Source of the DNA: a virus
Length of the DNA stretch: 17,122 nucleotides
UHGV virus genome: UHGV-0339891
Strand: one strand, 5' to 3'
A program made the translations under genes and the position numbers. The notes below the pieces were generated by a model that was not told where the DNA came from, ran no database searches, and was given only the letters and a program-made list of their open reading frames with translations. Shown one piece after another: positions 13,772 to 15,709 of the stretch; position 1 is the first letter of the stretch, and each line of letters begins with the position of its first letter.

Positions 13772-13956
13772 ACGCCACAATTCAAACGATACCAGAGCTT
13801 CTTATCCAGACACGAGGCAATCAGACCGAAGTGGCGAGGATGCTTTCCTGCGCAAGAGGAACAGTGCTCAAGTACAACCGAGACAGCAAAGGCGAGCGTC
13901 ATGTAATAGTTAACGGCGTCCTGATGGTCAAACAGGGCAAGAGGGGAAGACGATGA
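13768..13956 (+). CDS. ninH: NinH-like protein
   Basis: ORF track; TIPELLIQTRGNQTEVARMLSCARGTV resembles lambda NinH (recalled). Confidence 0.55.
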   Translation: MNATIQTIPELLIQTRGNQTEVARMLSCARGTVLKYNRDSKGERHVIVNGVLMVKQGKRGRR

Positions 13957-14471
13957 GCATAAGAGAACTAAATCTCACCAAAGAGCAGCACGAGTGGCTG
14001 AATGGCTGGCTTGAACTGTGGGGCGCATGGGTTTATTCAGGTCGTCTGGAAAAGCGCATGAGCAGCGTAATAGCGAAGTTCATGGAGAGCGTAGAGCCGG
14101 GAAGAGTTATGACAAGGCCAATGTGCAATGATGATGATGGAATGTTGATTTCTCAGGTCGTCGATTCCGTCATGTACATTGACAAAAAAGCCTTTGGGAT
14201 CCTCCTCAGCTACTACGCTCATGGTTCATCTAAGCGAGCAATTGCATCCTACTATCACGCGACTGCAAAGCCACGCAAGATGTGTGGACGTGGTGGCGAG
14301 GGATGGAGAAAACCTTCACTGGCAACCTGTAGAAACGAAATTGACGACATCCTGAAAGCGTCGTTATTTGTTTTGTACCAACCAATGCAAAATGCTTTCA
14401 AAATGCGTAAACGTGTTGAGAAAGTTAAGCATGTTGCTGTTAAAAGCCTTGACATGCAATTAGCCATTTAG
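13953..14471 (+). CDS. Q: Q-like late-gene antiterminator (phage 21/82-type Q family)
   Basis: ORF track; last gene before pR' and the lysis cassette; LELWGAWVYSG and CNDDDGMLISQVVD motifs resemble 21-type Q (recalled). Confidence 0.65.
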   Translation: MSIRELNLTKEQHEWLNGWLELWGAWVYSGRLEKRMSSVIAKFMESVEPGRVMTRPMCNDDDGMLISQVVDSVMYIDKKAFGILLSYYAHGSSKRAIASYYHATAKPRKMCGRGGEGWRKPSLATCRNEIDDILKASLFVLYQPMQNAFKMRKRVEKVKHVAVKSLDMQLAI

Positions 14472-14478
14472 CCATAAT
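14449..14478 (+). promoter_or_regulatory. pR'-like late promoter
   Basis: -35 TTGACA 14449-14454, 18-bp spacer, -10 CATAAT 14473-14478, inside the 3' end of Q. Confidence 0.5.
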
Positions 14479-14488
14479 TAGCAGGTAA

Positions 14489-14533
14489 GCTGCCGTTAGT
14501 GACTCTTAAGTTGCAACGGTGGCTTTTTTATTT
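14489..14533 (+). terminator. Terminator hairpin just downstream of pR'
   Basis: Stem GCUGCCGUU/AACGGUGGC (two G-U pairs) with 17-nt loop followed by TTTTTTATTT. Confidence 0.4.
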
Positions 14534-14770
14534 GCACAACAGGTAAGAGCATTCTCCCTTATGGGGCTTGGCTTAAATGCACCGAGTGCTCTTATCGTTG
14601 TGCTGAATTAAGCGAATGCCGGAAGCAGAACCGGATCACCAAATGCGTACAGGCGTCATCGCCGCCCAGCAACAGCACAACCTAAACTGAGCCGTAGCCA
14701 CTGGCTATCCTGAATTCATCAGTGATAGTTACGCTGCGGCCTTCTACACATGATCTTCGTGAAAGCGGGT

Positions 14771-14807
14771 GGCAGGAGGTCGCGCTAACAACCTCCTGCC
14801 GTTTTGC
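14771..14807 (+). terminator. Intrinsic terminator in the Q-S intergenic region (alternative tR')
   Basis: 9-bp stem GGCAGGAGG/CCTCCTGCC with 11-nt loop followed by GTTTTGCCC. Confidence 0.5.
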
Positions 14808-14925
14808 CCGTGCATATCGGTCACGAACAAATCTGATTACTAAACACAGTAGCCTGGATTTGTTCTATCAGTAATCGACCTTATTCCTAATTAAATAGAG
14901 CAAATCCCCTTATTGGGGGTAAGAC

Positions 14926-15249
14926 ATGAAGATGCCAGAAAAACATGACCTGTTAGCCGCCATTCTCGCGGCAAAGGAACAAGGCATCGGGGCAATCCTT
15001 GCGTTTGCAATGGCGTACCTTCGCGGCAGATATAATGGCGGTGCGTTTACAAAAACAGTAATCGACGCAACGATGTGCGCCATTATCGCCTGGTTCATTC
15101 GTGACCTTCTCGACTTCGCCGGATTAAGTAGCAATCTCGCTTATATAACGAGCGTGTTCATCGGCTACATCGGTACTGACTCGATTGGTTCGCTTATCAA
15201 ACGCTTCGCTGCTAAAAAAGCCGGAGTAGAAGATGGTGGAAATCAATAA
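14926..15249 (+). CDS. S: Class I holin S with dual-start MKM motif
   Basis: 107-aa ORF that appears essentially identical to lambda S (recalled). Confidence 0.9.
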
Positions 15250-15709
15250 TCAACGTAAGGCGTTCCTCGATATGCTGGCGTGGTCGGAGGGAACTGATAA
15301 CGGACGTCAGAAAACCAGAAATCATGGTTATGACGTCATTGTAGGCGGAGAGCTATTCACTGATTACTCCGATCACCCTCGCAAACTTGTCACGCTAAAC
15401 CCAAAACTCAAATCAACAGCAGCCGGACGTTACCAGCTTCTTTCCCGTTGGTGGGATGCCTATCGCAAGCAGCTCGGACTGAAAGACTTCTCTCCGAAAA
15501 GCCAGGACGCTGTGGCACTGCAACAGATTAAAGAGCGTGGCGCTTTACCGATGATTGATCGCGGTGATATCCGTCAGGCTATCGACCGTTGCAGCAATAT
15601 CTGGGCTTCACTGCCTGGCGCTGGTTATGGTCAGTTCGAGCATAAGGCTGACAGCCTGATTGCAAAATTCAAAGAAGCGGGTGGAACGGTCAGAGAGATT
15701 GAGGTATGA
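15233..15709 (+). CDS. R: Endolysin R (lytic transglycosylase)
   Basis: 158-aa ORF that appears near-identical to lambda R (recalled); start overlaps the S 3' end. Confidence 0.9.

Follow-up and report, generated by a model that had tools for sequence, protein, structure and literature searches.

What fills the interval between the late antiterminator gene Q and the holin gene S in the UHGV virus genome UHGV-0339891, and does it call for anything beyond what is known of late-gene control in lambdoid phages? The window, by which we mean the whole stretch of 17,122 nucleotides (nt) that was analysed, is the early-to-lysis part of a mosaic Escherichia coli lambdoid phage of the HK620 / vB_EcoP-683R2 kind (coverage 44-58%, identity ~95%). 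On the plus strand, to which all coordinates below refer unless stated otherwise, the last base of Q is 14471 and the first of S is 14926, leaving a spacer of 454 bp, in agreement with the approximately 450 bp given by an earlier reading made without database searches (hereafter the sequence-only reading). That reading called the spacer unusually long, a description that fails on comparison, as the interval is longer in lambda (676 bp), CUS-3 (596 bp), HK75 (509 bp) and Sf6 (460 bp), while P22 (434 bp) and phage 21 (366 bp) have shorter ones. We consider it probable that the spacer is a late-gene control region plus lysis-gene leader of a mosaic lambdoid phage, made up of three known pieces, and each feature singled out by the sequence-only reading is either known, a direct homologue of something known, or unsupported. 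The arrangement is the standard one of phage 21 and lambda, and its sole oddity is a pair of hairpins that are also found in the tRNA clusters of unrelated phages.

The upstream piece is a late cassette of the phage 21 type. The Q gene (13953-14471, 172 aa) belongs to the phage 21 family (Pfam PF06530, E = 1.1e-25) and matches the crystal and cryo-electron microscopy structures of Q21 (PDB 6JNX/6P18) with E = 9e-92 over residues 1-162; near-identity extends over residues 1-102, and the C-terminal, DNA-contacting part is divergent. Overlapping the 3' end of Q is the late promoter pR' (14449-14478), for which a promoter scan gave a sigma-70 match of 11/12 positions (-35 TTGACA at 14449-14454, an 18-nt spacer, -10 CATAAT at 14473-14478), and pR' is annotated at the same site in HK75, Sf6 and phage 21. 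Between -35 and -10 lies a tandem 8-bp repeat, AATTAGCC / ATTTAGCC (14458-14473), a putative Q-binding element (QBE) that aligns with the annotated QBE of phage 21, ATTGAGCA/AATGAGCA; a variant repeat, AATTATCC/ATTTAGCC, is proposed as the QBE of the same Q subtype in the phage L paper, which also discusses the co-variation of variant QBE and divergent Q C-terminus. This Q/QBE specificity subtype (14458-14473; Q codons after ~100, 14255-14471) is common to Sf6, HK75, CUS-3 and L. By alignment to phage 21 the start site falls at ~14485, followed by a sigma-dependent pause element (SDPE), TAAGCTG (14486-14492), identical to the annotated SDPE of phage 21, and by the intrinsic terminator tR' (14487-14529), a 17-bp hairpin at 14487-14525 with six U at 14524-14529 (-20.2 kcal/mol, z = -5.4). 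The window accordingly holds every part of a Q21-type cassette, namely a PF06530 Q, a promoter with tandem subsites, an SDPE and an intrinsic terminator, and pause element and terminator are those of phage 21 although the QBE repeat and the Q C-terminus differ.

The curated record of phage 21 gives, from experiments, the -35, a QBE of two tandem 8-bp subsites, the -10 and a mapped start, with the SDPE at +1 to +7 and the terminator, for which it cites PMID 1704887, at +2 to +49; our alignment to it shows no difference from TAAGCTG through the entire terminator. The tR' sequence is invariant in the window, phage 21, Sf6 and HK75, and is annotated as a terminator in all three phages. A terminator hairpin about 4 nt past the pR' start, reported as an oddity by the sequence-only reading, is indeed present (2-3 nt past the aligned start), but the same layout has been characterised experimentally in phage 21 and is annotated in HK75 and Sf6; because pause element and terminator are base-for-base identical to those of phage 21, it represents a known design rather than an anomaly. 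In the mechanism described by Yin et al. (2019), polymerase pauses at a -10-like element, and QBE-bound Q loads, forms a nozzle at the RNA exit channel and suppresses hairpin-dependent termination. By identity to these characterised elements, RNA polymerase in the window would start at pR' (~14485), pause at the -10-like TAAGCTG and, in the absence of Q, terminate at tR' after ~45 nt with release of a short leader RNA, whereas with Q on the tandem repeat a terminator-resistant polymerase would read on into S, R and Rz. Lambda, 21, 82, phi80 and P22 are all known to make short RNAs from pR', and in Stx phages such an RNA has become the regulator StxS. Within Q itself, a CII-type site, TTGCGTGGCTTTGC, lies on the minus strand at 14265-14278, an offset of 312-325 from the Q start, and the annotated CII site of the antisense promoter paQ in phage 21 stands at exactly the same Q offset (312-325); an antisense paQ RNA is probably conserved in the window, judging by this shared position. 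Across the window CII-type motifs number 6 against 4.9 expected, i.e. not above chance.

Beyond tR' the window departs from phage 21. In phage 21 and Sf6 a tRNA-Asn begins 3-4 nt past the U-run and is followed by tRNA-Thr, and phage L has tRNA-Asn and tRNA-Leu in this slot, whereas in the window the slot (14534-14681) holds two hairpin-closed modules instead of tRNAs. ARAGORN finds no tRNA or transfer-messenger RNA (tmRNA) in the window, lambda, HK75 or CUS-3, and an Rfam scan of 13800-15300 with E up to 10 returned no tRNA and only spurious small nucleolar RNA (snoRNA) and ctRNA matches, so that the tRNAscan and Rfam check recommended by the sequence-only reading, run here with ARAGORN and Rfam, reveals neither an intact tRNA nor a known RNA family; a fragment resembling a tRNA 3' half is present in module 2 only. 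A promoter scan detected none inside the spacer on either strand. The spacer is nonetheless densely structured: it contains 3 perfect inverted repeats of at least 9 nt with loops of up to 40 nt, where dinucleotide shuffles give 0.06 (P = 0.004), and the whole leader folds with z = -7.9. The suggestion that the slot might be a remnant is borne out, inasmuch as tRNA-Asn and tRNA-Thr occupy the same place in phage 21 and Sf6 and hairpins of tRNA arrays stand here.

Hairpin module 1 (14534-14603) consists of a 20-bp stem of 7 + 13 bp, in which GCACAAC, a bulged A (A14541) and GGUAAGAGCAUUC face the partners GAGUGCUCUUAUC and GUUGUGC, capped by the conserved apical element CUCCCUUAUGGGGCUUGGCUUAAAUGCA; its predicted energy is -34.2 kcal/mol (z = -6.0). 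By sensitive BLAST, a P1-like phage has a copy (94% identity) located downstream of its tRNA-Asn and tRNA-Thr, and Felix-O1-like phages have the core just upstream of tRNA-Arg. Scanning viral contigs with the apical 24-mer gave at least 43 distinct contexts among the matches listed, in which the module directly follows tR' terminators of at least six kinds, directly follows the CCA end of tRNA-Thr, or lies in arrays of the Felix-O1 type; its carriers include Felix O1, Moogle- and SUSP-like phages, P1, P7 and Klebsiella siphoviruses. Across copies the 27-nt apical element is identical while the stem covaries, the inner stem changing from AGAGCA/UGCUCU to AGGGUA/UACCCU and GGGCGC/GCGCCC, and the outer helix from CACAAC/GUUGUG to AACAUU/AAUGUU. 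In 24 sequences 94.7% of cells are paired (29-53% with the partners slid), and 5 pairs are altered on both sides, a count that 0/500 shuffles reach; for this comparison the 5' arm of the Felix-O1 type, misaligned by MAFFT, was corrected from the sequences themselves, with one test row padded with N. Moreover, since more than 30 cells are U.G or G.U, which would be A.C mismatches on the opposite strand, the module pairs fully on the plus strand only and would act as an RNA of plus polarity. The invariance of the apical element suggests that it has an additional function.

Module 2 (14597-14681) is closed by the inverted-repeat arms GUUGUGCUG / CAGCACAAC around a 65-nt core. Its 5' arm is the 3' arm of module 1, and with this arm in common GUUGUGC can pair either upstream or downstream. 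The core recurs directly after tRNA-Ser both in phage D6 (100% identity) and in rV5-like phages (84%). Its closing helix is formed by unrelated sequence in four lineages (GUUGUGCUG/CAGCACAAC, UUGACC/GGUCAA, AGGAUCA/UGAUCCU, and long arms of the module 1 type in D6), and an internal hairpin, read from the sequences in a register with a 7-nt loop, shows two independent compensatory changes (GGCG/CGCC, GUCG/CGAC, GGAG/CUCC); RNAalifold applied to the core picked another register, GGCG-UCAU-CGCC, without covariation. The core holds a piece like a tRNA 3' end, CCGG-N8-CCGG-AUCACCA, and the first half of the module, TAAGCGAAUG-CCGG..CCGG-AUCACCA, resembles the tRNA-Thr 3' half of Sf6 and phage 21, sharing an exact 10-mer with tRNA-Thr (P = 0.006). 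Both modules occur within the tRNA arrays of Punavirus, D6, Vequintavirus and Ounavirinae phages, and in every context with a tRNA no more than 400 nt away, module and tRNA share a strand (28/28 contexts for module 1, 35/35 for module 2); all modules fold with z from -2.9 to -8.5. Such contexts indicate that the modules would derive from a phage tRNA array.

Searches for a previous description of these elements returned little. Among 721 complete E. coli genomes in RefSeq there is no annotation under modules 1 or 2, with around half of the matches falling on P1-like plasmids, and Rfam applied to the related loci yields tRNAs, sub-threshold STnc100 matches and an unrelated isrJ match, with no family that fits the modules. 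A Y-RNA-like or tmRNA-like identity of the modules was abandoned in view of weak scores (no more than 25.6 bits for YrlA, whose cut-off is 69). We also set aside a peptide starting at an ATG in the module 1 loop (MGLGLNA...), which runs for 11, 16 or 57 codons according to the phage, shows no synonymous variation and has no good ribosome-binding site (RBS). An annotation does start at this ATG, as a hypothetical protein or putative lipoprotein Plp, in vB_EcoM-813R1 (locus L004, 1527-1700) and in P1-like records; given that the length of the reading frame differs among phages, 'plp' may be spurious. Likewise, the arms resemble the RYYYAAC/GTTRRRY of an integron attC site with one mismatch each, a reading dropped because the G.U pattern and the co-orientation with tRNAs indicate a plus-strand RNA.

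Several further observations concern the modules and their surroundings. The 5' arm of module 1 (14534-14541) contains CACAACA, doubled in P1-like copies (L004, 1496-1510), a motif that matches the consensus targeted by the GcvB R1 seed, which the prophage anti-sRNA (sRNA, small RNA) AgvB mimics. A direct repeat, CAGGTAAG, covers the start site and pause element (14482-14489) and recurs in the same arm (14540-14547), where it might be a promoter-distal sigma-dependent pause site; lambda has GCAGGTAA before tR' and the same ACAGGTAAGAGC beyond it. Upstream of module 1, Felix-O1-like phages and Klebsiella phage MK54 carry a further conserved hairpin, GCCCAC-GGUAUGAUUAAUAAG-GUGGGC (L261 330-400, L007 1440-1487, L262 1440-1490), and the conserved RNA may be larger there than module 1. 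The slots of HK75 and CUS-3 hold an obvious tRNA 3' half, GGUUCGAUUCCGGCCGCCA (L001 ~1040-1090, L002 ~1150-1185), and in the arrays of P1-like and D6 phages a number of hairpin modules come after pieces like 'GCCGG-N7-10-CCGG-YCAYCA-CAAC', which suggests repeated tRNA-plus-hairpin units. The STnc100 matches lie downstream of modules and upstream of tciA in P1-like and D6 phages (L004 2059-2179, L005 1586-1706, L037 3835-3955), at 38-42 bits against a cut-off of 47 (E 1e-5 to 1e-6). The match to isrJ, an Hfq-binding sRNA, is in the late-leader slot of a Citrobacter sp. prophage (L235 1366-1443; 45.5 bits, cut-off 37).

Starting from the observed covariation of the stems and their co-orientation with tRNAs, we tentatively propose that module 1, and probably module 2, belong to an undescribed structured-RNA family that travels with the tRNA arrays of unrelated enterobacterial phages (Felix-O1-like, P1/P7, D6, rV5-like, Klebsiella siphoviruses) and now also resides in lambdoid late leaders, where it would be cut out by tRNA-processing enzymes or RNase III, its invariant apical element, CCCUUAUGGGGCUUGGCUUAAAUGCA, having a sequence-specific function of its own; we hold this to be possible, though some way short of an even chance. 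In the three-piece explanation that we hold probable, the modules would be RNA-level hairpins for processing or stability, and they may also act in trans. RNase III cuts near-continuous duplexes of ~20 bp, a size that module 1 has (7 + 13 bp, one bulge), and cleavage would detach the paused or terminated 5' leader from the lysis mRNA and, in arrays, would free neighbouring tRNAs. RNase III sites in lambda late RNA in vivo were reportedly described by Daniels et al. (1988). Several points weigh against such a role. Tying those lambda sites to module 1, or to the P1-P3 stem described below, is a guess. The phages sampled are enterobacterial and exchange DNA freely, such that the near-identity of module cores may reflect recent transfer rather than selection. 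Finally, the module 1 arms enclose at least 7 different cargos (with T-arm-like hairpins in three of them), and in lambda, HK75 and CUS-3 the apical part is replaced by unrelated cargo, own to each, which argues that only the stem matters in those phages, or that nothing does.

The third piece is the leader of S, which is essentially that of lambda: window 14585-14930 and lambda 44845-45190, comprising the leader and the first S codons, are 97.1% identical, and Sf6 too has the S-proximal leader (~14685-14925). The CCA end of tRNA-Thr immediately precedes this leader in phage 21, Sf6 and two prophages, one of Escherichia sp. and one of Shimwellia. The first element of the leader is a predicted tRNA-trailer hairpin (14691-14740), whose sequence comes straight after that CCA end in phage 21, Sf6 and loci L206 and L211. 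The 3' flank of this hairpin is CUUCUUUUUUU in phage 21, marking it there as the terminator of the tRNA unit, CCUUUUAC in lambda, and a decayed U-run, CCUUCUAC, in the window. We collected 42 non-redundant leaders from viral contigs, which precede at least 8 different holin N-termini, nearly all of them dual-start (M-x-(x)-M); most were gathered with a search pattern that fixed segments B and C, defined below. A search with the S protein in a collection of one genome per species gave only ~8 informative loci, most others being contamination with lambda DNA. Lambda S at 98-100% identity, together with lambda flanks, is contained in assemblies under the names Bacillota, Collinsella, Segatella, Pseudomonas, Shewanella and Flavobacterium, among others (L207-L234 and further loci); these copies are almost certainly contaminants that stem from lambda control or ligation DNA.

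An RNAalifold consensus of 21 diverse holin leaders contains a composite stem (14756-14827) of three helices, P1 (UUCGUGA/UCACGAA, 14756-14762 / 14821-14827), P2 (14765-14770 / 14806-14811) and P3 (14771-14780 / 14791-14800), in which 4 pairs of P3 and 1 of P2 are altered on both sides. P3 is a perfect 10-bp hairpin kept by quite different sequences, and it is what the sequence-only reading took for a second strong terminator at 14771-14807. The G+C-rich stem with its covarying pairs bears out part of that claim, but there is no uninterrupted conserved U-tract: the 3' flank is GUUUUGCC in the window and UGAUCUGCC or UGAUUUGCUC in most homologous leaders, and on account of the weak U-tract a consensus terminator scan does not call P3. 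The flank GUUUUG (14801-14806), an internal loop between P3 and P2 in the fold of the window, is found in lambda-type leaders only, with UGAUYUGCYC elsewhere, and the flank is part of P2 in all leaders. Consequently, P3 is regarded as a conserved structural element, which may in lambda-type leaders be at most a weak back-up terminator. At ~23 bp the P1-P2-P3 composite also has the dimensions of an RNase III hairpin, and the leader as a whole would combine a decayed tRNA-operon terminator with a composite stem tipped by the supposed terminator. The P3 loop (14781-14790 in the window) is inverted in the Shimwellia (L211) and HK620-type leaders (UGUUAGCGC vs GCGCUAACA) by a palindrome-mediated flip, suggesting that the loop sequence is not read strand-specifically. 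Separately, P22- and HK620-type leaders (L202-L205, L235, L237) carry, ~150 nt upstream of the holin start, a hairpin CCCAGC..GCUGGG with a U-run on the opposite strand, i.e. a leftward terminator, which is absent from the window and lambda and could end an antisense sRNA like those mapped in prophages of enterohaemorrhagic E. coli (EHEC). A 50-codon reading frame with a GTG start (14722-14874) was rejected as a gene, for it overlies the conserved RNA helices and indels break it in homologues.

Downstream of the composite stem stand the two interleaved inverted repeats for which the sequence-only reading suggested a pseudoknot or alternative structures, and an inverted-repeat search recovers both of them exactly. 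The first, GAACAAAUC / GAUUUGUUC (A, 14825-14833; B, 14857-14865), closes a hairpin A:B (14825-14865) with an apical stem UUACU/AGUAG (14837-14841 / 14848-14852); 7-9 of its 9 pairs form in all 21 leaders, and in one leader class it closes a wholly different interior, the helix being extended by CCGA/UCGG. The second, GATTACT/AGTAATC, has 6-7 of 7 pairs in three lambda-type rows only, and the predicted partner of its 5' arm is the nearer AGUAG at the tip of the A:B hairpin. A complementarity missed by the sequence-only reading is that of B (GGAUUUGUUC, 14856-14865) to a third segment, C (GAGCAAAUCC, 14898-14907), with which it forms an inverted repeat with 13-nt arms, as well as to A. C in turn overlaps, in the 5' arm, 4 of the 6 base pairs of the sdi hairpin (14904-14920), a predicted fold that sequesters the RBS of S and whose arms covary across leaders (CCCC/GGGG, CCUCAC/GUGAGG, CCUCC/GGAGG). 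In lambda the sdi hairpin controls the dual starts of S (S107/S105), and the window has the same Met-Lys-Met, ATGAAGATG, at 14926 with this RBS-sequestering hairpin just upstream. S itself (14926-15249; Pfam PF05106, E = 2.4e-30; Met1 at 14926, Met3 at 14932) and the following reading frame at 15233-15709 are lambda S and R.

These relations raise the possibility, on weak evidence, that A/B/C is a bistable element in which sdi would form when B pairs with A and would be disrupted when B pairs with C, tuning the use of the two S starts and hence the holin-to-antiholin ratio. The RNAalifold consensus picks B:C, and across the 42 leaders A:B and B:C have predicted probabilities that add up to ~1, with A:B favoured in 29 and B:C in 13, while the predicted probability of sdi tracks that of A:B; A and C vary solely by A-to-G transitions opposite U in B. 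Against such a switch it must be said that A:B, B:C and P1 show one-sided (G.U) changes only, and that the invariance of B and C and the 100% pairing of B:C are not independent evidence because the search pattern fixed both segments. In addition, the fold model of the window gives A:B at ~100% and pairs the RBS with CUUAUUCC (14880-14887), which is specific to lambda-type leaders, rather than in the sdi hairpin.

Whether the spacer might be explained otherwise can now be considered. The sequence-only reading suggested that the interleaved repeats could form a pseudoknot or alternative structures; taken as an explanation, it has them make a discrete regulatory RNA upstream of the holin RBS, flanked by two true terminators. 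Both repeats are perfect, the region is highly structured, and all 21 leader types keep the first repeat. Nevertheless, we judge this very unlikely: stem 1 is kept in 21/21 leaders while stem 2 has only 1-4 of 7 pairs in 18/21, leaving the pseudoknot without comparative support, and the AGUAG preferred by the 5' arm of the second repeat is homologous to GUUAC/GUAAC in HK620- and P22-type leaders. Nor does the upstream hairpin have a conserved U-tract, and there is neither a promoter in the spacer nor a matching Rfam family. What survives of the regulatory RNA is the known sdi hairpin and the conserved hairpin of the first repeat. An independent Hfq-type sRNA or anti-sRNA of the AgvB/AsxR kind is likewise very unlikely. 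Members of that class in EHEC prophages are 51-60 nt long, have their own promoter and terminator, and form the antisense member of a convergent pair downstream of pR'. The slot does coincide with the 'moron site' of these mapped pairs, and the CACAACA of module 1 is the target of the GcvB R1 seed, yet the motif is buried in a 20-bp stem, no internal promoter exists on either strand, neither module has a U-tract terminator of its own, the modules are sense to the late transcript whereas anti-sRNAs are antisense, and Rfam gives no match with E up to 10.

Two accounts of the conserved blocks without an RNA function deserve more weight. The stretch from tR' to sdi could be functionless debris of a tRNA or moron array, kept because it is short and recently transferred, as would befit the highly variable content of the slot (tRNAs, tRNA halves, different cargos), the tRNA 3' half that is obvious in HK75 and CUS-3 and degenerate (tRNA-Thr) in module 2, the lost U-run of the trailer terminator, and the 94-100% identity with P1-like and D6 phages, which suggests recent exchange. 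We think this unlikely given that compensatory and G.U changes maintain the stems across Felix-O1-like, Klebsiella, P1-like and lambdoid copies around an identical 27-nt apical element, that the closing stem of module 2 has been rebuilt from unrelated sequence in four lineages, and that the holin leader is conserved before at least 8 different holin genes. Alternatively, the blocks may serve at the DNA level as 'boundary sequences' for homologous swapping of Q modules, morons or tRNAs, and lysis cassettes, the hairpins being incidental. CUS-3 annotates exactly these blocks (bsq4 and bsq3), the junction of tR' with module 1 falls at one and the same nucleotide for at least six different types of tR', and the inversion of the P3 loop in Shimwellia and HK620-type leaders is a palindrome event at the DNA level. 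This account, which we find rather doubtful, leaves unexplained the strand-specific G.U compensation, the strict co-orientation with tRNAs in virulent phages that are not lambdoid, and the conservation of the apical loop in Felix-O1-like phages, which lack Q/S modules; it is, moreover, compatible with the modules having a role as RNA.

As submitted, then, the finding amounts to textbook late-gene control for which no new biology is needed. The one unexplained lead of the region is the set of tRNA-array hairpin modules, to which the A/B/C arrangement of the holin leaders may more tentatively be added. Phage tRNA arrays and lambdoid late leaders share a covarying hairpin RNA whose apical element does not vary and which is absent from Rfam; it bears on a question raised in the phage L paper, namely whether and how late-leader tRNAs leave the late mRNA. 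In the ~170-nt leader before many dual-start holin genes, one invariant 10-mer has two mutually exclusive partners, one of which overlaps sdi; if true, the A/B/C switch would add an upstream layer to the classic timing circuit of holin and antiholin. As the sequence is 97% identical in lambda, the arrangement is directly testable there.

Phage 21 is the closest model for the upstream part of the spacer. It shares with the window the Q family, a promoter overlapping the 3' end of Q, a tandem 8-bp repeat between -35 and -10, an identical TAAGCTG and an identical terminator hairpin 2 nt past the start site, and its late regulatory region was reportedly treated by Guo, Kainz and Roberts in 1991. 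It differs in its QBE (ATTGAGCA/AATGAGCA rather than the AATTAGCC/ATTTAGCC of the Sf6/L/HK75 subtype) and in the divergent C-terminal part of Q, and after tR' it has tRNA-Asn and tRNA-Thr and another holin, S21. In Sf6, HK75 and CUS-3 the Q/pR'/tR' module is 97-98% identical to that of the window and the S-proximal leader is the same; CUS-3 annotates two conserved blocks as boundary sequences, and the HK75 record marks pR' and Tr'. These phages diverge in the middle of the slot, with two intact tRNAs in Sf6, the module 1 stem, other cargo and a tRNA 3' half in HK75 and CUS-3, and a lambda-like pair of modules in the window. Lambda has in common with the window the leader, a 21-mer after tR', the arms of the module 1 stem, the dual start ATGAAGATG and the sdi hairpin, but has its own Q type, a 194-nt 6S leader and other apical cargo in module 1; Luk and Szybalski are said to have described, in 1983, tandem terminators downstream of t'R1 in lambda.

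More distant parallels exist for the individual RNAs. StxS of Stx phages and lambda 6S similarly combine a constitutive late promoter with an immediate terminator and yield a small RNA in lysogens, although the RNA of the window would be only ~45 nt, nearly all of it terminator hairpin. Small stable RNAs are also part of the T4 tRNA cluster, which resembles the present case in having a discrete structured RNA co-transcribed with tRNAs, with no sequence similarity to the modules. In the metY-nusA-infB operon an RNase III hairpin downstream of the tRNA metY releases the tRNA; like the modules, it is a long duplex co-transcribed between a tRNA and downstream RNA, and the likeness is one of arrangement, without similarity in sequence.

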